DNA from: a virus
Reading direction: 5' to 3' (one strand)
IMG/VR virus record: IMGVR_UViG_3300032335_000935
Coordinates: 4,090-68,089 of that record
Length of the DNA stretch: 64,000 nucleotides
A program made the translations under genes and the position numbers. The notes under the pieces were generated by a model. It was not told where the DNA came from. It saw only the letters and a program-made list of their open reading frames with translations, and did no database searches. Positions 743 to 31,218 of the stretch are shown here, one piece after another. The first letter of the stretch is position 1. The number at the start of each line of letters is the position of its first letter.

Positions 743-1449
743 TCACACACTTTGTGACTTCGGGTTGCAGCTTTTCTGAACGTCCCGGTAACTGGCACAC
801 CTTGCTGCATGAGCGACTGGGTCGTTCCATACGTCACAGTCCATTGGGCATGAGCAGCCAGGGAAATGGCCTGGTCAGTCGGCGACTCATACATTACTGC
901 CAATATCTCATGGATCGAGGCATTGCACCAGACGAGATATTTGTGGCTGTGATGTGGAGTGGACCGGATCGGCATGACTATTACACTCGCAGTGATCCGG
1001 GCTTTTCAGGCAACACTCATGGCTGGAGTCGTAATCCTGTGCAGTTTGTTGATGGTGGCGAAGGTGCCTGGGTCATATTTAACCCACTGTGGACCATGCA
1101 CAATTGTGAAACATGGTATCGCCACTTTCATGACGACGTGGGTGCTGTGATTTCAACACTGGAGCATGTGCTGCGCACTCAGTGGTACTTGAAAAATTTA
1201 GGCATCCGCTACGTGATGTCTACATACATGAACACTGTGTTGCCAGACTGGTGTGCTGAACACCCAGACACTGCACACTTGTGGCACATGTTGGATCATG
1301 GCAGTTTTGTGCCAGTGTCGGGCATGTGGGAGTGGTGTCGTGATGCCACTGATATTGAGTTCCGAGCCGGAGACTATCATCCGGTGCCGGAACACCACAA
1401 AGCATTTGTAGAACAGGTCATGTGGCCATTTGTAAAGGAACGTATATGA
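739..1449 (+). CDS. SGNH/GDSL-like hydrolase family protein (paralog A)
   Basis: N-term TSGCSFSERPG (GDS-like block I) and C-term DYHPVPEHH (DxxH block V); paralogous to 11627, 12337, 32275 ORFs. Confidence 0.5.
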   Translation: MITHFVTSGCSFSERPGNWHTLLHERLGRSIRHSPLGMSSQGNGLVSRRLIHYCQYLMDRGIAPDEIFVAVMWSGPDRHDYYTRSDPGFSGNTHGWSRNPVQFVDGGEGAWVIFNPLWTMHNCETWYRHFHDDVGAVISTLEHVLRTQWYLKNLGIRYVMSTYMNTVLPDWCAEHPDTAHLWHMLDHGSFVPVSGMWEWCRDATDIEFRAGDYHPVPEHHKAFVEQVMWPFVKERI

Positions 1450-2393
1450 AAGTAGTTGTAACTGGAGCCGCTGGATATGTGGGCTCGCAAACTGTGTTGG
1501 CATTGAGTGATGCTGGGCACGAGGTCTTGGCCATTGATCATGTGTCGCTGCCCAAGGCTGTGAGTGCAGTGTGTGCACAGCAATTGATTCAAAACTTTGC
1601 GTCAGACACAGCCTTGGATTGGGTTCGGTATCATCAACCACAGGCTGTGATTCACTGTGCTGCCGAAAGCACTGTGGGCCCCAGCATGACCAATCCCAGC
1701 AGCTACTACGATGTCAATGTGGTAGGCACCAAGAGACTGATTGACACTGTGCGGCAAATGCCCGGCGTTAAGTTTGTGTTCTCAAGCTCGGCTGCGGTAT
1801 ACGGTGAGCCCATAATGACTCCCTGTCATGAAGTTGACCCTTGTGAACCCATTAACCCTTACGGTGAAACTAAGCTGGTGATTGAGCGACTGTTGGCCAG
1901 TTACTTCCGTGCCTATGGTCAAGAATATGTGGCTTTTAGATATTTCAACGTGGCCGGTGCTGACAGTCAAGGTCGTGCAGGGCCACATCGCGACGGCAGT
2001 CACATCATTGAACGTGCACTGCAATCAGTCACACAAGGCACCACGTTTGAACTCTACGGCACTGACTATCCCACTCGTGATGGAACTTGTGTGCGAGATT
2101 ACGTGCATGTGGAGGATGTGGCTCAAGCACATGTCATGGCCTTGAGCTCTACAATTGAGTCAGGAGTGTACAACCTTGGCAGTGACCAGGGCGTAAGCAA
2201 CCTTGAAGTGTTGGCAGCCGTTCATTGCGCAACTGGACAAGCTGTGACTGTGCAACACTGCGATCGACGTCTGGGAGATCCAGCACAACTCACAGCCAGT
2301 CCTGCCCGTTGGATTACTACTACCAAAGGTGGTTGGAAGGCTCAAGGGCTTGATAGTATGATTTCTAGTGCATGGGCCTGGTTTCAGTCATGA
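1446..2393 (+). CDS. galE: NAD-dependent UDP-sugar 4-epimerase (GalE-like)
   Basis: MKVVVTGAAGYVGS Rossmann motif, SSSAAVYG, YGETK catalytic YxxxK; RBS AAGGA 7 nt upstream; ATGA overlap with previous gene. Confidence 0.8.
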   Translation: MKVVVTGAAGYVGSQTVLALSDAGHEVLAIDHVSLPKAVSAVCAQQLIQNFASDTALDWVRYHQPQAVIHCAAESTVGPSMTNPSSYYDVNVVGTKRLIDTVRQMPGVKFVFSSSAAVYGEPIMTPCHEVDPCEPINPYGETKLVIERLLASYFRAYGQEYVAFRYFNVAGADSQGRAGPHRDGSHIIERALQSVTQGTTFELYGTDYPTRDGTCVRDYVHVEDVAQAHVMALSSTIESGVYNLGSDQGVSNLEVLAAVHCATGQAVTVQHCDRRLGDPAQLTASPARWITTTKGGWKAQGLDSMISSAWAWFQS

Positions 2394-3514
2394 CATACAG
2401 CGTACACCAACACTGGGATCCATTAAGGGTGTGCGTTGTTGGTCGCAGTTGGAATCCTGAATTCTACTCATGGATCAAGGTTCCGCATGTGCGACACTTG
2501 TTTGAGCGCATTGCCGAAGAAACTGAGGAGGATTATCAAAATCTCATTGCTAAGTTAGAGAGCTTTGGCGTCAAGATATTGCGACCTACCATGCCTGAAC
2601 CATTCAAACACGGGCGATATACCATACCTCCTATGTCACCTAGAGACCACATGGTAATGATTGGAGATAAACTATATCGCAATAGTAGCGATTGGGATTG
2701 GTTTTACAAAAAAGTCAAAGATGACGCTTGGCCCAACGCACTGTTTAACCAGTTACCTAGCCATATACAAGAAGAGTGCATAAATGTGCATGGCTGGAAA
2801 ACGGATCAAGCTGATTATGCATATGACCGTTGTTACGCTGATATTTTTAAACATGTACGAGAACAAGGAAATCAGATTGTAGACGGATATGCATTTTCCA
2901 ATGGAGCCATGACTTCTCGGGTAGGTAAAGATCTTTATATAGGTACTTGGCTAATAGATGAGAACATTGAAGTTCTCAAAAAACAAACACAAGAACAATA
3001 TCCCAATCATCGAACTCATGTAATACACACCGTTGGGCACACCGACGGTACTTTTTGTCCAGTTGCTCCTGGACTAATAATCAGTCTCATGGATGGTCCC
3101 ACATATGAAAACACCTTTCCGGGCTGGGAGGTAGTGAATTTACAAGGACAAAGCTGGGAACAAATTGGGCCTTTTCTAACACTCAAACACAAAAATCACG
3201 GCAAATGGTGGATCCCGGGGTTTGAATACGATCAAGATGTAGTCAACGTAGTAGAAACATGGTTGAGTCACTGGACTGGTTATGTTGAAGAAACAGTGTT
3301 TGATGTCAACATGTTGATTGTGGACCCAAAAAATGTCATAGTGTTTAATCACAACGACAAAGTATTCAAAGCATTTGCTCGATATGGCATAACACCGCAC
3401 GTGGTGCCATTTAGACACAGGTATTTTTGGGATGGAGGTATACACTGCATCACTACTGATCTAGATCGACAAGGTACACAACAAGACTATTTTCCCGAAA
3501 GAAATCATGTTTGA
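2390..3514 (+). CDS. amidinotransferase-family protein
   Basis: N-term WDPLRVCVVGRSW, HTD motif, C-terminal GGIHCITTDL (Cys nucleophile context typical of amidinotransferase/arginine deiminase superfamily); ATGA overlap. Confidence 0.65.
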   Translation: MTYSVHQHWDPLRVCVVGRSWNPEFYSWIKVPHVRHLFERIAEETEEDYQNLIAKLESFGVKILRPTMPEPFKHGRYTIPPMSPRDHMVMIGDKLYRNSSDWDWFYKKVKDDAWPNALFNQLPSHIQEECINVHGWKTDQADYAYDRCYADIFKHVREQGNQIVDGYAFSNGAMTSRVGKDLYIGTWLIDENIEVLKKQTQEQYPNHRTHVIHTVGHTDGTFCPVAPGLIISLMDGPTYENTFPGWEVVNLQGQSWEQIGPFLTLKHKNHGKWWIPGFEYDQDVVNVVETWLSHWTGYVEETVFDVNMLIVDPKNVIVFNHNDKVFKAFARYGITPHVVPFRHRYFWDGGIHCITTDLDRQGTQQDYFPERNHV

Positions 3515-4112
3515 TGAAATTTTTGAATTTGAACAGGACCTAGCTCGCTTTACCGGCGCACCCTATGCAGTCATGACTGATTGTTGCACACATGCCATTG
3601 AGCTGTGCCTGCGCTATGATAATATTCGGCAGTGCAGTTTTACTCCATTTACCTATGTCAGTGTGCCCATGACTATGGTCAAACTGGGCATTGATTTTGA
3701 TTACTTTCCTGATCACTTGCCACATCGGCAGCAGTGGGTAGGCGAGTACAAGTTTGAAGCCACTCGTATCTGGGACAGTGCTCGCAGACTAGAACCCAAC
3801 ATGTATCGGCCTGGACAGATGCAATGTTTAAGTTTTGGTTTCAGCAAACCCATTGACATCAATCGTGGCGGTGCTATACTATTGGATGACCGAGAAGCCT
3901 GGCAGAAGCTGAGTCAAATGCGCAGTGACGGAAGAGATCTACGAATCTCACCTTGGGAGAAACAAACAGTCATGGAACTGGGTTTTCACTATCGCCCCAC
4001 CATAGAAGAAGCTCGTCGTGCACAAGCAGCCCTGGATCTCTATCAACAAAATCCACAGCCACCACGAGCAGTGAATTACCCAGACTGTCGTAATATTTTT
4101 ATTAAATCTTGA
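3507..4112 (+). CDS. hypothetical protein
   Basis: ORF track, 201 aa, no recognisable motif. Confidence 0.45.
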   Translation: MFDEIFEFEQDLARFTGAPYAVMTDCCTHAIELCLRYDNIRQCSFTPFTYVSVPMTMVKLGIDFDYFPDHLPHRQQWVGEYKFEATRIWDSARRLEPNMYRPGQMQCLSFGFSKPIDINRGGAILLDDREAWQKLSQMRSDGRDLRISPWEKQTVMELGFHYRPTIEEARRAQAALDLYQQNPQPPRAVNYPDCRNIFIKS

Positions 4113-4137
4113 CGCGGCTGTCTAAATACTGTATAAT
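4109..4137 (+). promoter_or_regulatory. sigma70-like promoter (TTGACG-N17-TATAAT); folE ATG lies about 7 nt after -10 (leaderless?)
   Basis: ttgacg 4109-4114, 17-nt spacer, tataat 4132-4137. Confidence 0.55.
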
Positions 4138-4143: not shown

Positions 4144-5001
4144 ATGGACATCCTCGTCCCAAACTCGGAGAACAACTTGACCAAAGAATTTATACCAGAC
4201 CCCGTAATCAACGGTTCCGATAATCGAAAGTTTGTCAAAGACGAATATACACCGTTGGGCAAAGAAGTGTATGTAAAAGCCGGAGACGATATGAGCGACA
4301 AAGGCTACGAAGAAGCATATCTTTCAGATGTAATCCGTGCTAGAATGAAACGAGATAGTAAAAGATTCTGGGCTGGCGATAACATCTCAGATTACTTACA
4401 CGAAACAGACAAAGAACATTTGATAAACGAAGCTACAGAAGCATTTGAACTGGTGCTTGATCGTTTGCTGATTGATCGAGACTCAGATCCCAACAGTCAT
4501 GGCACAGCTCGACGACTGGCCAAGATGTACTTTAACGAAATCATGGCAGGTAGGTATGAACCCAGACCCGATGCAACATCATTCCCCAACAACTCGCAGG
4601 ACCGTTACGAAGGTATGCTGGTGGTTCGTAGCGAGTTGCGCAGCATGTGCAGTCATCATCACCAACCCGTGGCTGGTGTTGCTTATATTGGCATTATTGC
4701 CGCTCAGCACCTCATCGGTCTTTCAAAATATACACGCATCGCACAGTGGTGTGCGCGACGAGGCACCCTCCAGGAGGAGCTTTGTAACGACATTGCTCGA
4801 GAAATTGAGAGGGCCACAGGGGCCACGGACCTAGGTGTGTATATTCAGGCCACACATGGTTGCTGTGAAAATCGCGGCATCATGGCACACAGCAGTCTTA
4901 CACAGACCACAGTGCTTCGGGGTGCATTCCGCACAGATCCTGCTGTGAAAAAAGAGTTTTTTGACAACATCAAGCTTCAGCAAGACTGGGCACCACGCTA
5001 A
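4144..5001 (+). CDS. folE: GTP cyclohydrolase I
   Basis: SMCSHHHQPV...YIGIIAAQHLIGLSKYTRIAQWCARR matches FolE zinc-site/active-site segments (CEHH-like, GLSK..R..Q). Confidence 0.9.
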   Translation: MDILVPNSENNLTKEFIPDPVINGSDNRKFVKDEYTPLGKEVYVKAGDDMSDKGYEEAYLSDVIRARMKRDSKRFWAGDNISDYLHETDKEHLINEATEAFELVLDRLLIDRDSDPNSHGTARRLAKMYFNEIMAGRYEPRPDATSFPNNSQDRYEGMLVVRSELRSMCSHHHQPVAGVAYIGIIAAQHLIGLSKYTRIAQWCARRGTLQEELCNDIAREIERATGATDLGVYIQATHGCCENRGIMAHSSLTQTTVLRGAFRTDPAVKKEFFDNIKLQQDWAPR

Positions 5002-5702: not shown

Positions 5703-6098
5703 ATGACTGATCTTGATCAAGCACACCACAGTGGTGTAGCACCCTGGGATCTCAAAGTTGAAAGACTCAGTGACTATCATGTTGCAGTGTTTGAGGATCG
5801 ATTTCCAGTAACTCGTGGACATTTGTTGTTTGTTCCTGAATACAACAACGATGATATCATTGCAGAATGTTTTGAGGCTGCCTTGCGCGAGGGTCGCAGA
5901 CTGGTCACAGCTGGCGAATGCACTGCATTCAACATTGGTATCAACATGGGCTATGACGCTGGTCAAACTGTGATGTATCCACATGTGCACCTCATACCCA
6001 GACGTTCTGGAGACACAGCCAATCCTGTAGGCGGTGTACGTGGAGTGATCTTTGGGCAGGCCAATTATCGCTCAGGCGGCTACGAACTGCCTAAATAA
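5703..6098 (+). CDS. HIT-like (histidine-triad-like) domain protein
   Basis: TRGHLLFVP and YPHVHLIP resemble HIT/GalT half-motifs (only two His in triad position); assignment tentative. Confidence 0.4.
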   Translation: MTDLDQAHHSGVAPWDLKVERLSDYHVAVFEDRFPVTRGHLLFVPEYNNDDIIAECFEAALREGRRLVTAGECTAFNIGINMGYDAGQTVMYPHVHLIPRRSGDTANPVGGVRGVIFGQANYRSGGYELPK

Positions 6099-6176: not shown

Positions 6177-6716
6177 ATGGCAAAATTTTTATCTACCAAG
6201 ACTTACGGCAATGACCGTGGACTCAGCTGCTGCTTCCGTCAATGGCGCAGTCGACACAGTCATTGCAGTCTGTTGCACGGCTACTCAATTGGTATCCGAC
6301 TGGTGTTTGAAAGCGATACCTTAGATGACCGCAACTGGGTCATGGACTTTGGTGGCCTCAAGGCCTTCAAGGAGTGGAGCGAATACATGTTTGATCACAC
6401 CTTGCTCGTTACTCGAGATGACCCACATTATCAAATGTTTGTGAGCATGAGTGACCTGGGCCTGCAGGATCGCGGCGGCGTTTGTGACCTGCGCACTGTG
6501 GATGCTGTGGGTTGTGAAAAGTTTGCTGAGTTGGCCTATCAAGAAATGAACAAAATTTTGGAAAAGTTCAAGGCTGACGAACGCTATGAGTTCTACGATA
6601 GCCGCGTCAAAGAAAAACGTGGTTTCAGTGCACGTTATCCAGTGGGCGAATCAGTGCGCCTGCGCAGCGTAGAAGTATTTGAGCACAGCGGTAACTCGGC
6701 TACTTACGAAGGATGA
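6177..6716 (+). CDS. queD: 6-carboxytetrahydropterin synthase / PTPS-family protein (QueD-like)
   Basis: CCFRQWRSRHSHCSLLHGYSIG resembles PTPS Cys..HGH zinc/active-site region; good RBS AGGAGG upstream; adjacent to folE/queE. Confidence 0.55.
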   Translation: MAKFLSTKTYGNDRGLSCCFRQWRSRHSHCSLLHGYSIGIRLVFESDTLDDRNWVMDFGGLKAFKEWSEYMFDHTLLVTRDDPHYQMFVSMSDLGLQDRGGVCDLRTVDAVGCEKFAELAYQEMNKILEKFKADERYEFYDSRVKEKRGFSARYPVGESVRLRSVEVFEHSGNSATYEG

Positions 6717-6719: not shown

Positions 6720-7559
6720 ATGAACACTCAGTTTGATATTGCCATATTGTTGGCCACCCGTGGCCGTCAAGAGCCCTTGATGCGCAGTCTACAAAGTTTG
6801 GTGGATCTAGCCGACAATGCCAAACGCATTCAATTCATGCTGGCATTTGATCGCGACGACGCTGTGGGACTTGACTATTTTGTGAGCACTGTACAACCTT
6901 GGATGGACCAACAAGGTTTGCGATATCATGCTGAGGTGTTTGAGCCCATGGGCTACATTAACCTGCACAAATACAACAATGCCATGGCTGCCAAAACTGC
7001 CAGTGACTGGCTGGTGATCTGGAACGACGATGCTGTGATGGAGACCCAAGGCTGGGACACAGTTATTGCCAGTTACACTGGGCAGTTCCAGCTGTTGGCA
7101 TTTCATACGCATCGTGATCACCCCTACTCAATTTTTCCCATAGTGCCTCGAGCATGGTTTGATCTATTGGGCTACATTTCTCCGCACCCCACGCAAGACG
7201 GTTGGGTCAGCCAGCAGGCATACATGTTGGATATCTGGCAACGTATCCCAGTCAACGTGTTGCATGATCGTTATGATCTCACTGGCAACAATGCAGACGA
7301 AACATTTAGAAACCGTCCCATGCTAGAAGGCAAGCCCACAGACCCCAGAGATTTTCACAGCCAACAAATGATCGAGTTGCGGCACCAGGACTGTGGCAAG
7401 CTGGCTGCATACATGGTCAGTCAAGGACTCAGCATTGAATTTTTTGAAAATATCTTTCGTGGTATGCAGAATCCTTGGGAAAAATTGGCTCAAAACGATG
7501 TAAACGGACAAATGGTTCAGTTTCGAAACCCACATGCGCACTTTGCGGCGAGTAAATAA
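6720..7559 (+). CDS. hypothetical protein (279 aa)
   Basis: ORF track; no clear motif. Confidence 0.45.
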   Translation: MNTQFDIAILLATRGRQEPLMRSLQSLVDLADNAKRIQFMLAFDRDDAVGLDYFVSTVQPWMDQQGLRYHAEVFEPMGYINLHKYNNAMAAKTASDWLVIWNDDAVMETQGWDTVIASYTGQFQLLAFHTHRDHPYSIFPIVPRAWFDLLGYISPHPTQDGWVSQQAYMLDIWQRIPVNVLHDRYDLTGNNADETFRNRPMLEGKPTDPRDFHSQQMIELRHQDCGKLAAYMVSQGLSIEFFENIFRGMQNPWEKLAQNDVNGQMVQFRNPHAHFAASK

Positions 7560-7562: not shown

Positions 7563-9575
7563 ATGACATACAAAATTGCCTGGGTGCAGCCAAATTTCCA
7601 ACAAGGCCCCAAAGAATTCAACGCTCACTATCTGCCCTACTCAGCTGGTGTAATCTGGAGCTATGCTCGCACCGATGACTGGGTACGTGACAACTTTGAG
7701 CTCACTGACATGGTATGGCGGCGCGATGCTGTGGAGCCTTTGGCTCAACAACTCAGTGTCAACAACGTGGTGGCTTTCAGCACCTATGTGTGGAACCATC
7801 AGTACAACTACACCTTGGCTCGCAGAGTCAAAGAGCTCAACCCTGACTGCTTGATTGTGTTTGGTGGACCTGAGCCTGCCATCACTGATCCTGATTTGTT
7901 TCGCAAAGAACCCTACATGGATCTAGTGATTTGCTTCGAGGGTGAGATTACATTTCGCGAATTGTTGCGTAACTTTGAACGACGAAACTGGGAAAACATT
8001 CCGGGTCTGTTGATCAATTGTTCAGGCGAAGCTGTAAAAACCCCCGACGCTCGACGCATTGAAACCTTGGAGGAAGTGCCCAGTCCCTATCTCACAGGTG
8101 TGTTTGATGACATCATGGCACGTAATCCTGATGTAGAATGGAACGGCACACTGGAAACCAATCGTGGCTGCCCGTTTGCTTGTACGTTTTGTGACTGGGG
8201 ATCGTTGACCTACAACAAGGTCAAACACTTTGGTCTGGAACGAGTGTTTGAAGAGCTGGAGTGGATGGCCAAGCATCGCTGCGGTTTTATTTCCATCACT
8301 GACGCCAACTTTGGCATGTTCCCCGAGCGTGACAACATGATTGCTGACAAGATCATTGAAGTTCAAGAGCGTTATGGTTATCCCAAAACATTCAGTGTGG
8401 CCTGGGCCAAGAACCAAAAGCGCGAAGTAGTGGACATTGTAAAGAAGCTGTTGGACGCACCAGGCTTTAATCAAGGCCTGACCTTGAGTGTGCAGAGTCT
8501 GGATGTGGACGTTCTTGAAAACATTCGTCGCAAAAACATGGAAATGAACAAGCTAGAGGAAGTGTTTGAACTTTGTGAGCAGCGCAACATTCCCACTTAC
8601 ACCGAACTGATTCTAGGCTTGCCAGGGGAGACCTTGCAAGGCTGGAAAGACAACTTCTGGCGACTGTTCCGCATGGGCAATCATACTGGGCTCACGGTGT
8701 TCCAGGCCCAGATGCTGGAAAATGCCGAGATGAATCTGTTGCAAAAGAAGATGTTCCGCATCACAGCCACCAGAGTCACAGACTACTTCTCGGGCAGCTA
8801 CTCAAACGAACACATTGAAGAAGGCATTGACATTGTGACCAGTACTCGGGACTTACCACCTGAGACCATGTTGGATGCTGAAGTGTTTTCATGGTACATC
8901 AACACATTCCACATCAATGGTGTAAGCACATTGCTGAGTCGACTGGTGTACAAGTATCTGGGCATTGACTACAGCAACTTTTATGAAGACCTGTTTGAAT
9001 TTCTCAAACAAGACTCTTGGTTTGCACGTGAGATGCAAGAGGTGCGTCAATACTATGCCAACTGGATGAGTGACGGACGTATACGTCATCCCAATATTGG
9101 TGGCATTGAGATCCACGGCTGGAACCTCATACACCGTAGCATTCTCAACATGCACGTGGACAACCAGTACGACAACATTTTTGCGTTGCTGGCCCAGTTC
9201 ATGGCTCGTTATGACTTGCCGCAGGATCTACTGGATGATGCTATGCAGTTCCAACGTAGGTATCTCATTGCCTACAACGATCGACATCAGTATCCCATGC
9301 AACTAGAACTGAACCACAATCTTTGGGATTACCTTACTTTTGATCGACCGTTAGAACAGGGTCGTTGTGTGTATAACTTGGACTTCCCCGAGGACAAGAA
9401 CATGAGCTTCCCGCGCTTTCTCGAACTGTTTTATTTTGCCCGACGACGCAACTTTGGCAAAGCCATGGTAGAATTGGTAGATGGCAACACTAACGGAGCC
9501 CGACGTGGCGAGGCTGCATCGCGAGCATCTGGACAAACCACTGTTGCATTAACCACCATACCGGTAGTACAATAA
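7563..9575 (+). CDS. B12-binding-domain radical SAM enzyme
   Basis: N-terminal B12-binding-like region (LIVFGGPEP), NRGCPFACTFCDWG = Cx3Cx2C radical-SAM cluster motif; 670 aa. Confidence 0.75.
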   Translation: MTYKIAWVQPNFQQGPKEFNAHYLPYSAGVIWSYARTDDWVRDNFELTDMVWRRDAVEPLAQQLSVNNVVAFSTYVWNHQYNYTLARRVKELNPDCLIVFGGPEPAITDPDLFRKEPYMDLVICFEGEITFRELLRNFERRNWENIPGLLINCSGEAVKTPDARRIETLEEVPSPYLTGVFDDIMARNPDVEWNGTLETNRGCPFACTFCDWGSLTYNKVKHFGLERVFEELEWMAKHRCGFISITDANFGMFPERDNMIADKIIEVQERYGYPKTFSVAWAKNQKREVVDIVKKLLDAPGFNQGLTLSVQSLDVDVLENIRRKNMEMNKLEEVFELCEQRNIPTYTELILGLPGETLQGWKDNFWRLFRMGNHTGLTVFQAQMLENAEMNLLQKKMFRITATRVTDYFSGSYSNEHIEEGIDIVTSTRDLPPETMLDAEVFSWYINTFHINGVSTLLSRLVYKYLGIDYSNFYEDLFEFLKQDSWFAREMQEVRQYYANWMSDGRIRHPNIGGIEIHGWNLIHRSILNMHVDNQYDNIFALLAQFMARYDLPQDLLDDAMQFQRRYLIAYNDRHQYPMQLELNHNLWDYLTFDRPLEQGRCVYNLDFPEDKNMSFPRFLELFYFARRRNFGKAMVELVDGNTNGARRGEAASRASGQTTVALTTIPVVQ

Positions 9576-9579: not shown

Positions 9580-10467
9580 ATGAAAATCAAAGTCAGTGAA
9601 ATATTTTATTCTGCGCAAGGCGAAGGACGCTTTATTGGTGTTCCTAGTGTTTTCCTTAGAACGTTCGGATGCAATTTTACTTGCGCGGGCTTTGGCTGCG
9701 CTCCCGGATCAGTATCTACAGAAGCCGATGAGGTGGCAAAGAACATTCATCTTTACAAAGACTTCAACAGCTTGCCTCTGGTCAATACCGGCTGCGACAG
9801 TTATGCTAGCTGGCACCCGGCATTTAAAGAACTCAGTCCCAATCTAGACACTGTTGACTTGGTAGATCGCATGTTGGCGTTGACCCCCAATCAACACTGG
9901 GTACAACACAACGGCAACGATGTACATCTTGTGATCACAGGCGGTGAGCCTTTGTTGGGTTGGCAGCGAGCATACGAAGAACTGCTGAATCATGACGCCA
10001 TGCGTGATCTACAAAATTTAACTTTTGAAACCAATGGCACTCAAACACTGCAACCCAAATTCAGACAGTTCTTGTTGAACTGGAGTTTGAACAGTACCAA
10101 AAACTCACGCAGTGTGGCACGTGGCTCCAACAACTTGACATTCAGTGTCAGTCCCAAATTGTCAGCATCAGGTGAAAACTGGAGTGATGCTATTTGTCCC
10201 AACGTCATTGCTGACTATCAAGAAATTGGCACAGTGTATCTCAAGTTTGTGCTAGACAGTGAACAGCATTTTGACGAAGTAGATCAGGCTGTGAGTGAGT
10301 TTCGCAGTCAAGGTTTCCGTGGGGTAGTATATGTGATGCCACAGGGCGGCGTAGTCACACCCTATGCTGAAAATCGTGTGCGTGTGGCCGACTGGGCATT
10401 AACCCGTGGCTACAACTACAGTCCCAGACTGCATGTGGATCTCTGGGGCAATGGTTGGGGCAAATGA
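9580..10467 (+). CDS. queE: 7-carboxy-7-deazaguanine synthase-like radical SAM protein (QueE-like, atypical Cys spacing)
   Basis: EIFYSAQGEGRFIGVPSVFLRTFGCNFTCAGFGC matches QueE N-terminal signature (FxSxQGEG...FxRxxGCN) but cluster is Cx3Cx4C. Confidence 0.65.
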   Translation: MKIKVSEIFYSAQGEGRFIGVPSVFLRTFGCNFTCAGFGCAPGSVSTEADEVAKNIHLYKDFNSLPLVNTGCDSYASWHPAFKELSPNLDTVDLVDRMLALTPNQHWVQHNGNDVHLVITGGEPLLGWQRAYEELLNHDAMRDLQNLTFETNGTQTLQPKFRQFLLNWSLNSTKNSRSVARGSNNLTFSVSPKLSASGENWSDAICPNVIADYQEIGTVYLKFVLDSEQHFDEVDQAVSEFRSQGFRGVVYVMPQGGVVTPYAENRVRVADWALTRGYNYSPRLHVDLWGNGWGK

Positions 10468-10919
10468 CCCCGGACGTGATGTTAGGAGCGTTAGATATGT
10501 TTGATAAACTCAAAGGTTGGTTTGGCAAAAATGCTCAGGTAAATCCTCCGCCTGCTCAATCAAGACCTGAGCCCCCACCAAGCCCTCCCAAAAAGAAGGA
10601 ATCTGTCAAAACAGAAAAAGAGTTGGCCACAGAACGCGGGGAACCATGGATACAAGTTTTGCGCATTGATGTAGATCCTGAAAATCTACATCAGGGTGCG
10701 TTTGAACTGGACTGGAACGAGATCTTTGTGGCCCGCTTGGTCAAAGCTGGTTACATGATCAAACGTGAAGACACTGATGCTGAAATAGTGGATCGCTGGT
10801 TTCAAAATGTATGCAGACACGTTGTGATGGAGACTTGGGAACAAGAGCAGGCCATCAAACAATCCGGTATCTACGTACAGAGCAGAGATATAGGTGGAGG
10901 TCGGAGTGCAGTATCATGA
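10455..10919 (+). CDS. hypothetical protein (Pro-rich N-terminus)
   Basis: ORF track. Confidence 0.4.
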   Translation: MGQMTPDVMLGALDMFDKLKGWFGKNAQVNPPPAQSRPEPPPSPPKKKESVKTEKELATERGEPWIQVLRIDVDPENLHQGAFELDWNEIFVARLVKAGYMIKREDTDAEIVDRWFQNVCRHVVMETWEQEQAIKQSGIYVQSRDIGGGRSAVS

Positions 10920-11164
10920 GCATGCACTCACGCGAGCAAGCACAAGAATTTCTACGACAACTGGGACTGTTACGTCGGCGGCGGGTGCTAGAAGGCACTG
11001 AACGTGATCAAACCATGACCATGTTGCGACTGATTGGTCCAGGTGAACAATCAAACAATCAACGTTTTTTCAGTGAGACTTGGCAAGTGGGTCATATCAT
11101 GTACTGTCATACCACAGGTCAAGACATTGACGAATTGGAAGAAATAATTGACGATGATCTTTAA
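10914..11164 (+). CDS. hypothetical protein
   Basis: ATGA overlap start at 10914 chosen over 10811. Confidence 0.35.
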
Positions 11165-11630
11165 TCATATCAAACAACTCAAATCAGAAGGCAAAAGGAT
11201 TGGCATCACTTTTTCAACCTTTGACATGCTGCATGCAGGACACATTGCCATGCTGAGTGAAGCCAAGAACCACTGTGATTACCTCATTGCTGGCTTGCAA
11301 ACAGATCCCACAATTGATAGGCCCGACACTAAGAATCGCCCTGTGCAAAGCATTGTTGAGCGACAAATACAGCTGGCCGCATGTCGTTATGTTGATGAAG
11401 TTGTTGTTTATCAAACTGAACAAGATCTACGAGACCTGTTGTTGATTCTGCCAGTAGACGTGCGTATACTAGGTGTAGAGTACGAAGGCAAGAATTTCAG
11501 TGGCGACGAAGAATGTTGGAAACGCAATATTGAGATTGTGTTTAACGGGCGTGACCACTCATTCTCATCCAGCAGCCTTCGCAAACGTGTGGTAGCTGCT
11601 GAAACAGAAAAAGTTTTATTGCAAAAATGA
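11148..11630 (+). CDS. cytidylyltransferase-like nucleotidyltransferase (HxGH motif)
   Basis: GITFSTFDMLHAGH = (T/H)xGH nucleotidyltransferase signature of CTP:glycerol-3-P cytidylyltransferase / RfaE-II family. Confidence 0.7.
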   Translation: MTMIFNHIKQLKSEGKRIGITFSTFDMLHAGHIAMLSEAKNHCDYLIAGLQTDPTIDRPDTKNRPVQSIVERQIQLAACRYVDEVVVYQTEQDLRDLLLILPVDVRILGVEYEGKNFSGDEECWKRNIEIVFNGRDHSFSSSSLRKRVVAAETEKVLLQK

Positions 11631-12340
11631 TTTTGTACGTCAACGGCGACAGTCACAGTGTGGGCCATGGTACCGCATATCATGCCGGCATGTGTTTTGA
11701 TGACACTAAGACCAAACATCTGGGAGAGGCACCACATCCAGAAAACTTTCCACACAGCTATGGCGCATTATTGGCCAACCAACTTGACACTAATCTGGTG
11801 TGTCAAGCCCTGAGTGGCGGCAGCTTGGATCGAGCCATCCGCACCACCAAAACTTTTGTGTATCAATCTCAAGGACCAGTTTTTGTGTTGTTGGGTGTGC
11901 CTAGCTGGGAACGCACAGAAAAGTTCTACCACTATTCATGGTGGCCCATTAATTTTACTGGTCACGAACCCTTGCCGCCTGGACTGCATGCGTGGTACAA
12001 AAATTGGATCCTAGAATGGCAACGTGGCAGCATGCGGTACTATCATGATCAACCAGGTTTGCATCAACAACTGATTGATTTTCATGAGTGGTTAAACCAA
12101 CACAGCATCAAACATTTGTTTTTCAACACTGCACAGAGTTTTGTGACAGATGGTAGATTTGAACCATACGACTGGCAGGGGTGTTTCCTAACTCCGTATG
12201 GTGATCATACCACGCCCACTCACTATTTGAACTGGTGCCTTGACCAAGGGTTCCAGGACGACGAATACGGGCATTTTGGTAAAGATGCACATCGGGCCTG
12301 GGCCCAGCATCTGCTACCGCATATTCAGGCACTACTATGA
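11627..12340 (+). CDS. SGNH/GDSL-like hydrolase family protein (paralog B)
   Basis: MILYVNGDSHS (GDS block) and C-terminal DAHRAWAQHLL; tandem paralog of next gene. Confidence 0.5.
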   Translation: MILYVNGDSHSVGHGTAYHAGMCFDDTKTKHLGEAPHPENFPHSYGALLANQLDTNLVCQALSGGSLDRAIRTTKTFVYQSQGPVFVLLGVPSWERTEKFYHYSWWPINFTGHEPLPPGLHAWYKNWILEWQRGSMRYYHDQPGLHQQLIDFHEWLNQHSIKHLFFNTAQSFVTDGRFEPYDWQGCFLTPYGDHTTPTHYLNWCLDQGFQDDEYGHFGKDAHRAWAQHLLPHIQALL

Positions 12341-13041
12341 TCTTGTATGTCAACGGCGACAGTCATGCTGCTGCGGCCGAAGTTGTAAACGCCCATTCCT
12401 GGGCCTGTGATGACGGAGCATTATGGCAATGTGGACGAGAGCCACATCCCGACAATGCGCGAGCCAGTTTTGGGTGCGAACTGGCCAATCATTTATGGGC
12501 AGTGTTGGAGTTGCAAGCACAAGCCGGTTGCAGCAATGCTCGAATCATGAGAACCACACGACAGTGGATTGATCAAAACCCTGATCTTATTGGTCAATGT
12601 TTCATGGTGATTCAATGGACTACTTGGGAACGAGAAGAGTGGTGGCACGATGGCAAGGACTATCAAGTCAATGCGTCGGGCATTGACACCGTGCCTCCCG
12701 AACTTCAGGATCGCTATCGCCAGTTTGTAATTGATGTAGATTGGGAAAGTGCCCGTGCTCAAGCACATCAAGACATCTGGGAATTTCATTGCGAGCTTGA
12801 TCGTTTGGGTGTCCGACATGTGATGTTCAATGGCAACAACCATTTTGAAGGAATTGAGCACAAACTGGATTGGGGCACCAGTTATATTGCACCCTATGAC
12901 TCAACCAAAACTTATGATTCAGTATTACGACAACAAGGTTTTGGTACAGTAAATCCACAAAGTTGGCATTTTGGGCCCAAAGCCCATTGCTTTTGGGCAG
13001 AATATCTGCTACAATACATCAAGAGCAACCAACTACTGTGA
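12337..13041 (+). CDS. SGNH/GDSL-like hydrolase family protein (paralog C)
   Basis: MILYVNGDSHA, C-terminal KAHCFWAEYLL; same N-terminal 10 aa as upstream paralog. Confidence 0.5.
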   Translation: MILYVNGDSHAAAAEVVNAHSWACDDGALWQCGREPHPDNARASFGCELANHLWAVLELQAQAGCSNARIMRTTRQWIDQNPDLIGQCFMVIQWTTWEREEWWHDGKDYQVNASGIDTVPPELQDRYRQFVIDVDWESARAQAHQDIWEFHCELDRLGVRHVMFNGNNHFEGIEHKLDWGTSYIAPYDSTKTYDSVLRQQGFGTVNPQSWHFGPKAHCFWAEYLLQYIKSNQLL

Positions 13042-13045
13042 CCAC

Positions 13046-14131
13046 ATGAAATACCTTATAATTGACACTGCCAACATGTTTTTTCGTGCCCGGCATTCAG
13101 CACATCGTGCTTCGGACACATGGACCAAGTTGGGGTTTGCACTGCATGTCACGCTGATGGCTGCCAACAAAGTGGCCCGTAAATTTGAGCCTGACCATGT
13201 CATATTTGCACTGGAAGGTCGTTCGTGGCGCAAAGATCACTACCGTCCCTACAAGGCCAATCGTGCCGTGGCACGTGATGCCATGACAGAAACCGAAGCA
13301 GAAGAGGACAAACTGTTTTGGGAAACTTATGACCAGTTGTGTCAGTATCTTGGCACCCGTACCAATTGCAGTGTGATTCGCTGTGCCACTGCCGAAGCTG
13401 ATGACATCATTGCTCGCTGGATTGCCTTGCATCCACAGGATCAGCACACCATTGTCAGCAGTGACTCAGACTTTGTGCAACTGGTTGCGCCCAATGTTTG
13501 CCTCTACAATGGCATCAACGATCACTTGTTCACTGTCAGCGGGGTGGAGGATGACAAAGGTCGATCATTGAAATTCACAGTCAAAAGTGACAGCAAGATC
13601 AAAGTTGAGAAACATGATCCTGACTTTGTTGCCCCTGTGGATTATCATCGTTGGGCATTGTTCTTGAAGTGTGTGCGTGGTGATCCCGGCGACAATGTGT
13701 TTTCGGCCTACCCTGGTGCACCTATCAAAGGCAGCAAGAATCGCGTGGGTTTGACCGAAGCGTTCGAAGATCGTGGCCGTCGTGGCTATGCTTGGAACAA
13801 TCTCATGCTTCAGCGTTGGACTGACCACAACAATCAAGAACACAAGGTCTTGGACGACTACGACCGCAACCGTGTGTTGATTGATCTTACTGCACAGCCT
13901 GACACAGTCAAACAGGTTGTAGATGAATGCATACGCCAACAGATCAGTCACCGTGACATAGGTCAAGTAGGCGTGCACTTCATGAAATTCTGCGGCAAAT
14001 ACGAACTCAACAAACTCAGCGAGCATGCTGAAACTCTGAGTCGTTGGATGAACAAAACCTATCAAGGAGCACTGAATGATATTGGCCAAGCCCATAGTAG
14101 CCAACCGCTACTGGATACTCAAGAAGGATGA
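13046..14131 (+). CDS. 5'-3' exonuclease / flap endonuclease (T4 RNase H / T5 D15-like)
   Basis: MKYLIIDTANMFFRA...EADDIIA...acidic clusters typical of PIN-like FEN; start after stop of previous gene. Confidence 0.8.
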   Translation: MKYLIIDTANMFFRARHSAHRASDTWTKLGFALHVTLMAANKVARKFEPDHVIFALEGRSWRKDHYRPYKANRAVARDAMTETEAEEDKLFWETYDQLCQYLGTRTNCSVIRCATAEADDIIARWIALHPQDQHTIVSSDSDFVQLVAPNVCLYNGINDHLFTVSGVEDDKGRSLKFTVKSDSKIKVEKHDPDFVAPVDYHRWALFLKCVRGDPGDNVFSAYPGAPIKGSKNRVGLTEAFEDRGRRGYAWNNLMLQRWTDHNNQEHKVLDDYDRNRVLIDLTAQPDTVKQVVDECIRQQISHRDIGQVGVHFMKFCGKYELNKLSEHAETLSRWMNKTYQGALNDIGQAHSSQPLLDTQEG

Positions 14132-15135: not shown

Positions 15136-15426
15136 ATGATGAGTAGACCCAAGCCACAGGTACTGATTGAAAATACCAACAAGCAGACTTACAAAACCGA
15201 GCAAGTTCTGGCCAGCGAGGGTGTATGGGCAGTGTTCTACGACAGCAAGCCCATCAATCTCAAGACCAGCAATTTGTTGACTCAATACCCCGGTCCCAAG
15301 TACAAAAAGGTCAGTTTTTCAAATCCCGGGCATGCTAGAAACCTAGCCCGCAAACTCAACACACAGTTCAAGACTGATCGTTTCACTGTGGTATTGCTGA
15401 CCCAGGGCAGCACCATTTATCCATGA
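15136..15426 (+). CDS. hypothetical protein
   Basis: RBS AGGAGA upstream. Confidence 0.4.
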   Translation: MMSRPKPQVLIENTNKQTYKTEQVLASEGVWAVFYDSKPINLKTSNLLTQYPGPKYKKVSFSNPGHARNLARKLNTQFKTDRFTVVLLTQGSTIYP

Positions 15427-16658
15427 TTAGAATTTACGCTCACAGAGACCCCAAAACTGGCAACTGGCTCAGTCCCAACGAACATGCTGGCTTATGGGCA
15501 TGTCGCAAGAGTGTGGGGTGGCAAACTCATCAGTTTGTGCCACAACTGCAAGCACTGCGTGACAGCGATCGCTGGTTTGAATTTCGAGAATACGATCAAG
15601 GTGCCAAGGGCCGCGGCATATATCTTGTGTTTTGCGGCAACAAAGACGACTTGCAGGAATGTACAGGGCTGGCAGCACTCAGCACCGAAGTGCGCAATCG
15701 CATCAATGCTGGGGATCTAGATCTCTTGGTGGTGTTTACACACGAAGGGTTTGACGACTGGACTCTCAAAGAGTGGCAGAACTATTTTTGTACCCATTTA
15801 GGACAAATTGGCCTCACACGAGCCAATTCGGTCAAGGTATTGCTGGGTGTCAACAGCTTAGAAATGAGCAATCATCGTGACTGGCGAGTGCAGTGGATCT
15901 ATTATCCCTTTATTGAAGCTTTGACGCAAACGCAGGCCTTGCGAGTGTTTCGCGATCAAGAGCTGCCTGGCACAGATTTTACTGGGCGTCGTCACCGATT
16001 CCTTAGTCTGGGCGGTGTGATGCGAGTGCACAGACTGATCATGACCATGTATCTAGAATACCTTGGCATTACTGAACATGCCTACATCAGCATGCAGCCC
16101 ACTCATTTGCCCTGGGATCACTACGTAGAAAAAAACAACAACATGCACTATGGCATTGCCTGCAATGCTGAGTTCAAAAAGTTTCTAGACACCAACAAAA
16201 TCCCCAGTGGTAGCTATGCCAACAGCAATGATCGTCATCGTGACAGCCATGTGTCAGGTTGGTTCAACACTGATGCCTACTATCGCGAAGGCTGTGTGGA
16301 CCTTGTGCAAGAAACACACTATGCCATGTGGAACTGTACTTTTCTCACTGAAAAGACCTATCGTCCCATGGTGTATGGATTGCCGTTCATGATCAATGGC
16401 TGCCGCAGTAGCCTTGACACTTTGCGTAGAGAAGGTTACCAAACGTTCCCTGAGCTCTGGGACGAAGGTTATCAGGATCTCATGGCCGGTATCAATCCCA
16501 TAATGCACATTGGTGATCAGCTCAAAAAGTTTGTTGAGCGAGATGACTTCTATGAAGTACTCAACAGTGCGCCTATACAAGAAAAACTACGTCACAACCA
16601 ACAGTTGTTCTTTGCCAGAAATCACGCTCAACTGCTACACGATGCCTTGTCACAATGA
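15423..16658 (+). CDS. putative glycosyltransferase (GT10-like TEK motif)
   Basis: CTFLTEKTYRPMVYGLPFMING resembles fucosyltransferase-type TEK..G..P motif. Confidence 0.45.
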   Translation: MIRIYAHRDPKTGNWLSPNEHAGLWACRKSVGWQTHQFVPQLQALRDSDRWFEFREYDQGAKGRGIYLVFCGNKDDLQECTGLAALSTEVRNRINAGDLDLLVVFTHEGFDDWTLKEWQNYFCTHLGQIGLTRANSVKVLLGVNSLEMSNHRDWRVQWIYYPFIEALTQTQALRVFRDQELPGTDFTGRRHRFLSLGGVMRVHRLIMTMYLEYLGITEHAYISMQPTHLPWDHYVEKNNNMHYGIACNAEFKKFLDTNKIPSGSYANSNDRHRDSHVSGWFNTDAYYREGCVDLVQETHYAMWNCTFLTEKTYRPMVYGLPFMINGCRSSLDTLRREGYQTFPELWDEGYQDLMAGINPIMHIGDQLKKFVERDDFYEVLNSAPIQEKLRHNQQLFFARNHAQLLHDALSQ

Positions 16659-17038
16659 CACGCTTGGATTTTGCCAATCAAGTCTTGAGCCTTTTGCCAG
16701 CAGACTTGAACTGGACCTTGGAACGAGCACAGCACGATTGGTGGGTAGACAGTCGATCACACAGTGGGTTGAGGCTCACACGCGAAGCACGTGACTTGGC
16801 CAAGAGCGTGGGACTGGATAGTTGGCGTTTTGCGATCGAAGGCAACACACCATTCTTGCCTCGCACCATGCTCACTCTCAACAGCCATCTTGAATGCGCC
16901 TACTGGCTGGAACTCAAACGGCCTCCTGCCATTGAACTGTTTGGTTCACGCGAAGCTGTGATGTTTGGGCTCTATCGTGATATCAATCAGTTTGTGCGAG
17001 CCCTAGGTCGCGAGCCAGGCGCTCGCAATCACGAATAA
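16655..17038 (+). CDS. hypothetical protein
   Basis: ORF track. Confidence 0.4.
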   Translation: MTRLDFANQVLSLLPADLNWTLERAQHDWWVDSRSHSGLRLTREARDLAKSVGLDSWRFAIEGNTPFLPRTMLTLNSHLECAYWLELKRPPAIELFGSREAVMFGLYRDINQFVRALGREPGARNHE

Positions 17039-17957
17039 ATCGTAGTTCCATGATTGTGGGCCAGTCTTCCAGCAAGTGTTCTCGATTGGCTCGAATGCGT
17101 TCACGGTAAGGCTCAAGGTCACGTTGGCCCACAATGAGATCTTGATTCAGTGTCACAGCCTGCTCCACTCTCACTTCATTGGGCATGTAATCATACGTGG
17201 TGTTGACTAAATCATCAAACATATCAAAACCCAGTTCACGGCAGTGTTGTACAATGCCCGCATGCCCAATCACAATGGGTATCTGTCCCGCAGCAAACGC
17301 CATCAGTGTCTTTTCACTCACAATGCCTGGTGCAGTGTTGTATTCAGTTTCGGTCACAATGTTCACAGCCGTGGTACCATACAACCAATTCAGGGCAACA
17401 AAGTTGTCATCGTTTTCAGTGCCGCGGTAGCAACTATAATCCCACTTGGGCAGCGGATGTTCAGAGCCATAGGTCACAATGCCGTTGGGCAGATCACGCA
17501 ATGCCCAATAAGCACGTTGTCGATGTCGACAAGTACGTCCATTGAGGCACTGCCAAGCGCGAGTGCGAGTGTGCTGCATGGCCGGTAACCATTCTGCAGA
17601 TCTTGCGCTCAGCGCCTGACAGATATCGTAGTTGTGATTGCTGAACTCAATGAGATTGACTGGTCCTGAATACACTTGATCCAGCCCGTGATTCCAGTAA
17701 GTCACAACCACACGATTGCTGTTGGCTCCGTATTTGGCTTCAACTTTTTCAAGTTCAAGCACACGCCCATCCCGTATGTTCACAAAATCTTGAAAATGCA
17801 ACAGCAACAATGTTTTGGGGCCAAACTCAATGTCGGGCAGCTTGAGTGGCCATCCTGATTCAGGATCCACAGGCACATCGTAGCAATTGTACACACAGTG
17901 AAGATCATCAAATCCCACACGACCCAATTGTTCATTGAAGAAAACGCTGTATTGCAT
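16983..17957 (-). CDS. putative glycosyltransferase (GT10-like TEK motif)
   Basis: EYNTAPGIVSEKTLMAFAAGQIPIVIG; start set at MQYSV (17957) because upstream part of ORF is low-complexity. Confidence 0.45.
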   Translation of the reverse strand: MQYSVFFNEQLGRVGFDDLHCVYNCYDVPVDPESGWPLKLPDIEFGPKTLLLLHFQDFVNIRDGRVLELEKVEAKYGANSNRVVVTYWNHGLDQVYSGPVNLIEFSNHNYDICQALSARSAEWLPAMQHTRTRAWQCLNGRTCRHRQRAYWALRDLPNGIVTYGSEHPLPKWDYSCYRGTENDDNFVALNWLYGTTAVNIVTETEYNTAPGIVSEKTLMAFAAGQIPIVIGHAGIVQHCRELGFDMFDDLVNTTYDYMPNEVRVEQAVTLNQDLIVGQRDLEPYRERIRANREHLLEDWPTIMELRFIRDCERLARDLGLAQTD

Positions 17958-17979
17958 GCGGGTACTTATAAATATTTTT

Positions 17980-24258: not shown

Positions 24259-24333
<75 letters not shown>

Positions 24334-24354
24334 CCATATTTTAGAGAGTGCATC

Positions 24355-24729: not shown

Positions 24730-24799
24730 ACCCAAACCGGCGTTGGTCTAATGGATAAGGCAACGGTCTTCTACACCGTACGATGTGGGTTCGATTCCT
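24727..24799 (+). tRNA. tRNA-Arg (anticodon TCT), CCA encoded
   Basis: acceptor ccggcgt/acgccgg, anticodon stem acggt/accgt loop ctTCTac, T-arm gtggg-ttcgatt-cctgc. Confidence 0.75.
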
Positions 24800-24808
24800 G
24801 CACGCCGG

Positions 24809-24899: not shown

Positions 24900-24915
24900 C
24901 CACTAAGGAAACATC

Positions 24916-26313: not shown

Positions 26314-26322
26314 TAAGGAAGT

Positions 26323-26544: not shown

Positions 26545-26557
26545 GTTTTCTTATGAT

Positions 26558-26746: not shown

Positions 26747-26759
26747 AAACAGGGCTCAC

Positions 26760-31214: not shown

Positions 31215-31218
31215 GTGC

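Follow-up and report, generated by a model that had tools for sequence, protein, structure and literature searches.

Among the cobalamin-dependent (class B) radical S-adenosylmethionine (SAM) enzymes, TokK and ThnK are the sequential methylases of carbapenem C6 in Streptomyces (PDB 7KDX/7KDY). The family of CysS, from the cystobactamid pathway, and KedN5 belongs to the same subgroup and carries out the iterative methylation of a methoxy carbon. Further class-B radical-SAM methylases, such as GenK, GenD1 and Fom3, act on aminoglycoside sugars or on a phosphonate activated by cytidine monophosphate. In phages, the described systems for 7-deazaguanine in DNA consist of FolE, QueD, QueE and QueC together with DpdA (Hutinet et al., PMC10516641), a DpdA-family transglycosylase being their signature protein, and none of them has a B12 radical-SAM enzyme or a glycosyltransferase. 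Additionally, phage GT-A-like DNA glycosyltransferases have been described, for which TarP is the closest solved structure and which have partner epimerases (10.1101/2023.12.21.572611). The present analysis concerns the gene at 7563-9575 of a 64,000-nucleotide stretch of viral DNA (positions 4,090 to 68,089 of the IMG/VR record IMGVR_UViG_3300032335_000935), hereafter the window. Its product is predicted, from sequence comparison and structural modelling, to be a cobalamin-dependent radical-SAM C-methyltransferase of the TokK/ThnK/CysS type, a known kind of enzyme in a new and widespread viral context, that of freshwater jumbo phages. The gene and its cluster-binding motif are located as follows.

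7563-9575, plus strand: cobalamin-dependent radical-SAM enzyme, TokK/CysS-like, with an ATG start and 670 amino acids (aa)
8169-8192, plus strand: codons of CPFACTFC (C203-P-F-A-C207-T-F-C210), the [4Fe-4S] motif, with W212 coming right after

The protein is divided into a cobalamin-binding Rossmann domain (residues ~1-190), a radical-SAM core (~191-400), a C-terminal domain (~401-640) and a disordered tail (641-670). An earlier note, made from the letters of the window, had described a B12-binding radical-SAM enzyme in which CPFACTFC follows the B12-binding region, and this description is confirmed by two Pfam domains that score above their cut-offs: PF02310 (B12-binding) at residues 49-135, with 37.3 bits against 32.1 (E 2.8e-9), and PF04055 (Radical_SAM) at residues 199-361, with 49.2 bits against 29.5 (E 8.8e-13). 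C203, C207, C210 and W212 are invariant across all aligned homologues. Searched against PDB sequences, the enzyme matched TokK (E 2e-82, query residues 22-481) and CysS (E 8e-46). Its database homologues at E <=1e-5 number more than 4,500, which, together with the Pfam and TokK E-values, excludes a chance resemblance. At E <=1e-30 the homologues form 1,623 clusters at 50% identity, and full-length homologues occur at 37-57% identity.

The fold agrees with this placement. An AlphaFold (AF2) model, with 42 homologues in the alignment, has a mean predicted local distance difference test score (pLDDT) of 81.6. In Foldseek comparisons, the model matches TokK over its full length (667-681 columns) with a template modelling (TM) score of 0.81-0.84 and CysS with 0.71-0.77, TsrM, OxsB, MgmA and AprD4 being much weaker structural matches, and its cobalamin domain superposes on those of TokK and CysS. 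TokK and ThnK have the same three-domain architecture as the phage enzyme, which is 28-29% identical to TokK over the structural alignment, and both of their signature tryptophans are conserved in it. According to the TokK paper, Trp76 lies beneath the corrin, Trp215 is an active-site residue, and the pair is conserved in TokK, ThnK and CysS only; in the HMMER alignment these residues correspond to W77 and W212, each invariant in 16 of 16 diverse homologues. Arg280 of TokK, which anchors the carbapenam carboxylate, corresponds to Ser278 here and to S, T, A, I or N in the relatives. Because this arginine is not kept, the substrate is presumably different, and the protein is regarded as a relative of TokK, not as its orthologue. 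The genomic settings differ as well, since TokK and ThnK belong to an actinomycete antibiotic cluster, whereas the phage enzyme is encoded by a jumbo phage with no β-lactam genes nearby; neither are there aromatic-acid or carrier-protein genes near it, in contrast to CysS and KedN5.

The top NCBIfam match is the KedN5 family NF033712 of methylcobalamin-dependent C-methyltransferases, with 272.5 bits against a cut-off of 700; the match covers only positions 5-398 of the 624-position profile and leaves the C-terminal third of the enzyme unmatched. Membership of class B, which the earlier note had proposed, is supported by sequence, fold and the tryptophan pair, and within this class the enzyme falls in the subgroup whose members C-methylate unactivated carbons. 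It has a detectable cobalamin domain and lies outside any characterised subfamily with a known substrate. Class B includes enzymes that are not methylases, and a different cobalamin/SAM radical chemistry on a nucleotide or sugar, such as OxsB-like ring contraction or rearrangement or BchE-like cyclisation, would suit a phage context rich in nucleotide metabolism; OxsB and AprD4 are among the structural matches, and BchE and AprD4 (E 2.3e-5) are among the weak NCBIfam matches. Such chemistry is nevertheless considered highly improbable, given the TM scores for TokK and CysS against 0.48 for OxsB (E 5e-44 against 4e-14), the invariance of a tryptophan pair specific to TokK, ThnK and CysS, and the nature of the top NCBIfam family.

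The gene lies in a plus-strand row whose members are separated by gaps of 3-4 nucleotides (nt) or overlap, in the order QueD-like, GT-A, radical-SAM enzyme, QueE-like and a 154-aa protein. The neighbours in this row are the following.

6177-6716, plus strand: QueD-like protein of the 6-carboxytetrahydropterin synthase/PTPS family, 179 aa (Pfam PTPS E 5.7e-15; phrog_2389 E 1.7e-35)
6720-7559, plus strand: GT-A glycosyltransferase, 279 aa (AF2 pLDDT 86.6; Foldseek probability 1.0)
9580-10467, plus strand: QueE-like radical-SAM protein, predicted 7-carboxy-7-deazaguanine (CDG) synthase, 295 aa (phrog_2076 E 3e-52, full length)
10455-10919, plus strand: 154-aa conserved protein after QueE (80 loci; weak phrog_13349 match)

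The earlier note had placed the enzyme between QueD- and QueE-like genes. QueE is indeed adjacent downstream, its gene beginning 5 nt past the end of the radical-SAM gene, and QueD is upstream, but the GT-A gene separates QueD from the enzyme. For the GT-A protein, the top Foldseek matches are TarP (the best PDB match), RmlT, PcManGT, ppGalNAc-T and TarS, and a DxD-type motif (N102-D103-D104) is invariant, as are D44, D46 and D47. The possibility that this 279-aa gene encodes a divergent DpdA was ruled out, as its predicted structure is that of a GT-A glycosyltransferase.

The window is phage DNA, as indicated by many PHROG families, 41 tRNA genes, a permuted transfer-messenger RNA (tmRNA) and a GOLLD RNA, and its source is a jumbo phage of roughly 340-350 kilobases (kb). 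Relatives are found in IMG/VR and other metagenomes, where the longest contigs measure 347-353 kb; contigs of 340-350 kb with the gene include JGI Ga0620610_0000034 and IMGVR_UViG_3300032268_000986 or 3300034104_005687. The conservation of the row was followed in 84 loci, comprising 80 from IMG/VR, three further metagenome loci and one locus of a cultured cyanophage. A radical-SAM gene (66-99% identical) with the GT-A gene directly upstream is present in 83 of the 84, QueE follows downstream in 81, and QueD precedes it in 75. The order in the clade is GalE, short DegT, FolE, HIT, QueD, GT-A, radical-SAM enzyme, variable genes, QueE, the 154-aa protein, nucleotidyltransferase, DUF6071 and exonuclease. 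Among the genes that fill the variable positions, a 233-aa protein (c0) occurs in 67 loci but not in this window, and a phosphoribosyltransferase directly follows the radical-SAM gene in 12 relatives (L002/L003, 11949-12458; L019-L021, L024, L030, L081; also L166, 19520-20107). Some relatives add an HhH-GPD glycosylase-like gene, and the window has neither of these two. Other occupants include a second GT-A paralogue, a class-I SAM methyltransferase, a Rieske protein, a PP-loop-motif protein, a YhhQ-type (Pfam Vut_1) transporter and further radical-SAM enzymes, among them a second B12 type. The locus is thus a rapidly diversifying biosynthetic island. The placement of the enzyme among CDG-pathway genes, which the earlier note had called unusual, is conserved in the 83 loci, and no description of it was found in the literature. 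A megablast search of the INPHARED phages revealed no close relative, and the protein search yielded just two matches, with 25-28% identity.

Because all 83 loci come from one phage clade, the comparison was extended outwards. A sister phage clade carries an enzyme that is 50-57% identical overall (~70% in the radical-SAM core, ~44% in the C-terminal domain) on phage-like contigs, the longest of which measures 364 kb, and the 82 loci of this query set were searched for Que genes within 10 kb. The neighbours in these loci are a multi-copy protein family of 411 or 356 aa (53 loci), c0-like proteins (40), short DegT (30), epimerase (19) and amidinotransferase (12), along with extra B12 radical-SAM paralogues; single loci hold a UDP-glucose dehydrogenase, a TobZ/NodU-type carbamoyltransferase, a 2-oxoglutarate-Fe(II) oxygenase and several SPASM radical-SAM proteins. 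Of the 82, only 11 have QueE no more than 10 kb from the enzyme. In eight of those 11, QueE belongs to a separate module on the opposite strand (QueE, HIT, phosphoribosyltransferase, HhH-GPD, FolE) beside the exonuclease, and the other three (L235, L241, L243) have the layout of the window, as does L242, where the match to QueE was too weak for the counting filter. The 7-kb contig L085 encodes a 53%-identical enzyme with c0 and three proteins of the multi-copy family as its neighbours and contains no Que genes. Around the homologues of 80 cellular-genome or metagenome-assembled-genome loci (22-53% identical), QueD, QueE, QueC and FolE were found within 8 kb in none, and a GalE-like epimerase was found in 22-24, a co-occurrence judged, by inference without a control set, to be far beyond chance, given how few genes of this kind a genome holds. 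The neighbours of two full-length cellular homologues, from Terriglobia (L086) and Gammaproteobacteria (L087), were uninformative, and IMG/VR scans with two 42-47% identical representatives (P0243, P0252) gave no match. The constant neighbour of the enzyme is the GT-A glycosyltransferase, not QueD or QueE.

These counts bear on the proposal of the earlier note that the enzyme C-alkylates the deazapurine or pterin scaffold. Methylation could take place at an sp3 carbon of 6-carboxytetrahydropterin (CPH4) before the ring contraction by QueE, or at the pyrrole C8 or a side-chain carbon of 7-deazaguanine, and would in each case give the phage an alkylated 7-deazaguanine. There is chemical precedent, in that CloN6 exemplifies class-B methylation of a pyrrole carbon and CPH4 has sp3 carbons. 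The order QueD, GT-A, radical-SAM, QueE with gaps of 3-4 nt is kept clade-wide and recurs in L235 and L241-L243, the Que genes look genuine, with a QueE homologous to that of phages with proven deazaguanine DNA, and some relatives have a YhhQ-type transporter, of a family with a role in preQ0/preQ1 transport, and a phosphoribosyltransferase beside the enzyme. On the other hand, Que genes are lacking within 8-10 kb in 71 of 82 sister-clade and 80 of 80 cellular loci, and the glycosyltransferase is the neighbour that stays; TokK-type chemistry begins by hydrogen abstraction at an sp3 C-H, and neither CDG nor preQ0 contains such a carbon; and no C-methylated 7-deazaguanine was found in the survey of phage DNA (PMC10516641). 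The enzyme class and the Que context of that proposal stand, and no specific tie to the scaffold is seen, the GT-A gene being adjacent in 83 of 83 loci and QueE near the enzyme in 11 of 82 sister-clade loci and 0 of 80 cellular ones. The co-occurrence with queE that the earlier note had offered as a check holds within the window clade (81 loci) and is rare near the enzyme outside it. Methylation of the scaffold is therefore regarded as unlikely, and the sugar branch of the island is a more likely place for the chemistry than the ring of a deazapurine or pterin. The remaining genes of the block and its surroundings that are relevant to this are listed below.

1422-2393, plus strand: GalE, UDP-glucose 4-epimerase, 323 aa (TIGR01179 297.9 bits against an equivalog cut-off of 262.3; Pfam Epimerase E 2.8e-52)
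2372-3514, plus strand: amidinotransferase-family protein, 380 aa (PDB matches L-arginine:glycine amidinotransferase, StrB1 and SxtG, E 1e-10 to 6e-8)
3507-4112, plus strand: short DegT/DnrJ-type aminotransferase-like protein, 201 aa (Pfam DegT E 6e-12, in two stretches)
4144-5001, plus strand: FolE, GTP cyclohydrolase I, 285 aa, with an N-terminal extension of ~100 aa (Pfam GTP_cyclohydroI E 1.2e-37)
5703-6098, plus strand: HIT-family nucleotide hydrolase/transferase, 131 aa (Pfam HIT E 2.7e-8; 64 of 84 loci)
11148-11630, plus strand: sugar-/polyol-phosphate nucleotidyltransferase, RfaE domain II/glycerol-3-phosphate cytidylyltransferase-like, 160 aa (CTP_transf_like E 2.3e-12)
11627-12340 and 12337-13041, plus strand: tandem DUF6071 proteins, with a third copy at 739-1449 (Pfam E 3e-6 to 3e-3)
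12971-14131: 5'-3' exonuclease, downstream of the island
15423-16658 (plus strand), 16983-18053 (minus strand) and 20153-21226 (minus strand): paralogues of the multi-copy family, putative nucleotide-sugar glycosyltransferases (grouped by hhalign and conserved residues)
18678-20153, minus strand: asparagine-synthase-type glutamine amidotransferase, 491 aa (Pfam GATase_7 and Asn_synthase)

The reading that we tentatively favour, giving it a little under an even chance, is that the enzyme C-methylates a sugar or a glycosyl unit by radical chemistry. It is favoured because the GT-A gene is adjacent in all 83 loci, GalE and a nucleotidyltransferase (NCBIfam rfaE_dom_II E 6e-23, under its cut-off) stand in the same-strand block, and an amidinotransferase and a short DegT protein accompany them; and because the sister-clade enzyme lies in sugar-tailoring islands with QueE rarely near, and some cellular loci hold an epimerase. 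The enzyme class, the fold, the signature residues and the conserved gene order are observed directly; the methylation chemistry, the sugar substrate and the identity and target of any product are inferred. The setting is comparable to aminoglycoside tailoring, with which the island shares an aminotransferase and a StrB1-like amidinotransferase, and to which the relatives add a carbamoyltransferase and SPASM radical-SAM proteins. The likeness to GenK, GenD1 and Fom3 is functional and contextual, and no close sequence relationship to them was found. The amidinotransferase is a variable member of the island, found in 9 related loci, and the short DegT gene occurs in 52 loci of the window clade, each time encoding ~195-204 aa. 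At about half the normal length, the DegT of the island is kept so in both phage clades, and a full-length PseC-like sugar aminotransferase is encoded 56 kb away, at 60130-61251 on the plus strand.

By analogy with characterised relatives, one molecule of SAM would methylate Co(I) to give methylcobalamin, and a second would be cleaved at the [4Fe-4S] cluster to give a 5'-deoxyadenosyl radical. Hydrogen abstraction by this radical at an sp3 carbon would leave a substrate radical, to which methylcobalamin would donate its methyl group, perhaps repeatedly on one carbon. The substrate could be a nucleotide-activated sugar or a glycosyl residue added by the upstream GT-A enzyme. The methylase would accordingly represent one tailoring step in the synthesis of a decorated amino-sugar glycan, for which the genes lie in a variable island of the jumbo phages, other steps being contributed by GalE, the aminotransferase-like proteins, the amidinotransferase, the nucleotidyltransferase and several putative glycosyltransferases. 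As the island is interleaved with FolE-QueD-QueE, 7-deazaguanine might be the acceptor of the glycan or a separate product of the same early-gene block. A S-adenosylhomocysteine hydrolase is also encoded in the window (47186-48475, plus strand, Pfam E 3.5e-130), which would clear S-adenosylhomocysteine produced by the SAM enzymes of the phage, including the radical-SAM methylase.

Several points weigh against a sugar substrate. The evidence of linkage is gene neighbourhood in two related groups of jumbo phages, so that the loci are non-independent, and the Que genes of the sister clade could sit more than 10 kb from the enzyme. The nearest characterised enzymes, TokK, CysS and KedN5, use pantetheine- or carrier-linked carbapenam or methoxybenzoate and not sugars, and the sugar-methylating class-B enzymes are not among the NCBIfam matches listed, of which AprD4 (at the E-value given above) is the sole aminoglycoside-related one. 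QueD and QueE flank the enzyme in one tight row, which could reflect the order of a pathway. The multi-copy "glycosyltransferase" family beside the sister-clade enzymes has no database match, and its assignment rests on a likeness of motif to GT10 fucosyltransferases. In this family, the profiles of the 411-aa and 356-aa proteins form one superfamily (hhalign probability 99.9, E 1e-37), with R204, E297, (S/T)-E310-K311 and G338 invariant and with at least 220 copies among the fetched loci, often 3-5 per locus; neither sequence nor profile searches gave a Pfam, PHROG or PDB match. The motif resembles the GDP-fucose-binding motif of those enzymes, a likeness that no database search confirmed, and the family possibly consists of GT10-like glycosyltransferases.

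The Que genes themselves were examined for their relation to nucleic-acid modification. FolE, the QueD-like and the QueE-like proteins are common to the window and the described phage 7-deazaguanine systems. Matches to the QueE-like protein were found in 206 phage records, and 186 of these span at least 80% of the query; among the phages matched are Rosebush, CP220, phiSM, VH7D and HVTV-1, in the DNA of which 7-deazaguanines have been demonstrated (PMC10516641). The TGGEPL, ETNGT, FSVSPKL and C-terminal R.H motifs of the window protein align with the proteins of Rosebush, CP220 and VH7D. The cluster motif is split (C31-x3-C35-x36-C72), likewise in VH7D, CP220 and the cyanophage BUCT-ZZ01 (L249, L248, L004), and is a contiguous CxxxCxxC in Rosebush; curated bacterial QueE models match residues 2-37 only, under their cut-offs. 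The sister-clade locus L166 encodes a QueE of 281 aa, to which the window QueE is only ~52% identical and several QueE genes of the window clade are 72-75% identical. In the QueD-like protein, the cysteine and the Asp-His pair are present, and the sequence reads C-S-L-L-H-G-Y and F-R-Q; C-x-L-L/I-H-G-Y and F/Y-R-Q are found in all QueD-like relatives and in BUCT-ZZ01. In Escherichia coli QueD, the zinc ligands lie in HGH and AAH, at the positions of HGY and F-R-Q here. From these residues, the activity of the QueD-like protein may differ from that of a canonical CPH4 synthase.

The step that would place a deazaguanine in DNA was not recognised in the window. No TGT or DUF6610 Pfam match was obtained among its open reading frames of at least 210 aa, and a phmmer search with Rosebush DpdA1 found no match in these 64 kb of a genome of ~340-350 kb, DpdA3 and DpdA4 being too divergent for such tests. 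Rosebush QueC likewise gave no phmmer homologue in the window, and when the Rosebush proteins and the neighbour proteins of CP220 and VH7D were compared with the window, only FolE and QueD were recovered. The PP-loop-motif protein of the relatives (c10) was considered as a QueC and shows no detectable relationship to it. In BUCT-ZZ01, QueE, phosphoribosyltransferase, QueD and FolE stand together. In the biosynthesis of tubercidin and toyocamycin, a deazapurine is turned into a nucleotide, and by this analogy, the phosphoribosyltransferase beside the Que and radical-SAM genes suggests that CDG may be converted to a nucleotide and not exchanged into DNA. In CP220 (L248, 6947-14050), QueE is followed by a UDP-glucose-dehydrogenase-like gene, a radical-SAM gene and a cytidylyltransferase-domain protein, near RNase H, and all G in the DNA of this phage is replaced by 2'-deoxy-7-amido-7-deazaguanosine (dADG). 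This mixture of Que and "sugar-nucleotide" genes recalls the window, and homology to window proteins was found for QueE only.

A further explanation is that the radical-SAM and GT-A enzymes act on 7-deazaguanine already present in phage DNA or in tRNAs with GUN anticodons, producing a glycosylated and C-methylated hypermodification, in which case the sugar reading and the Que context would both be correct. The island adjoins the 5'-3' exonuclease (12971-14131), MazG-like, HhH-GPD and phosphoribosyltransferase genes occur in relatives, and the window encodes tRNA-Asp (two), tRNA-Asn (two), tRNA-His and tRNA-Tyr. Its GT-A protein also has TarP as the best PDB match, with GalE in the block, which parallels the TarP-like GT-A proteins and epimerases found by DNA-metabolism genes in other phages (10.1101/2023.12.21.572611). 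The latter, however, act on 5-hydroxymethylpyrimidines and are tied to 5mYOX/ThyS-like genes, neither of which was found beside the cluster, and the likeness noted here is one of fold and context. Moreover, no DpdA/TGT-type transglycosylase or QueC was detected in the 64 kb, and the glycosyltransferase paralogues and tailoring enzymes of the sister clade resemble glycan synthesis more than base modification. We know of no glycosylated deazaguanine in DNA. This explanation is considered distinctly unlikely. Rather improbable, too, is its specific product, a new hypermodified base in which 7-deazaguanine bears a sugar that is C-methylated, perhaps repeatedly, and which would be placed in phage DNA or in the Asp, Asn, His and Tyr tRNAs of the phage by an as yet undescribed non-DpdA route, for instance by the phosphoribosyltransferase or HhH-GPD proteins of the relatives.

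The enzyme family is abundant, with two large clades on phage-like contigs of up to about 350-364 kb, and it marks a large, fast-varying island that joins aminoglycoside-like sugar tailoring with the 7-deazaguanine pathway. In the literature, neither the enzyme nor the island was found described, and no cobalamin-dependent radical-SAM enzyme was found for any nucleobase or glycan pathway of phages or as the subject of a study in a virus. The identity of the product would reveal either a new methylated glycan on DNA, tRNA or virions, or deazaguanine chemistry beyond the eight known DNA derivatives; were the hypermodified base real, its synthesis would include a step that depends on cobalamin, the first such in the modification of viral nucleic acids. 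Replication of the phage may depend on the cobalamin supply of the host, a potential ecological link in B12-limited lakes. Rfam found no cobalamin riboswitch in the window, and a MoxR-type AAA ATPase with a DUF2201/VWA partner (51981-55126, plus strand), considered as CobS/CobT, had no NCBIfam match as such. As a soluble homologue of TokK that presumably takes another substrate, the enzyme could serve mechanistic studies.

Additional features of the window were recorded. Upstream of FolE, a promoter scan gave a good sigma-70-like match at 4109-4137, and a Bax1-I membrane protein gene lies between FolE and HIT on the plus strand. The DUF6071 proteins are possibly SGNH-hydrolase-like; a related accessory protein of neighbouring loci (c23) has faint GDSL-lipase matches. 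The amidotransferase at 18678-20153 (NCBIfam asn_synth_AEB E 8.5e-31, under its cut-off), whose gene is flanked by two of the putative glycosyltransferases, could amidate a carboxylate, for example that of a uronic acid or CDG. The 41 tRNA genes (24259-44201, all on the plus strand) include every normally queuosine-bearing tRNA, in the numbers given above, and this set could link the deazaguanine genes of the phage to its own tRNAs. The permuted tmRNA is in two pieces (26221-26768, plus strand; tag ANDDVYALAA; Rfam tmRNA_permuted 138.6 bits), and the GOLLD RNA (34478-34944, plus strand) is full-length, with 204 bits against a gathering score of 150 (E 3e-56) and a tRNA-Asn(GTT) at 34540-34613 inside it. 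Also encoded are a TctA-family transporter subunit (28617-29921, plus strand), ThyX (57936-58628, plus strand) and, among the tRNA genes, a DesA-family fatty-acid desaturase of 234 aa (42696-43400, minus strand), which scores 393 bits against a cut-off of 400 over profile positions 11-240 of 385.

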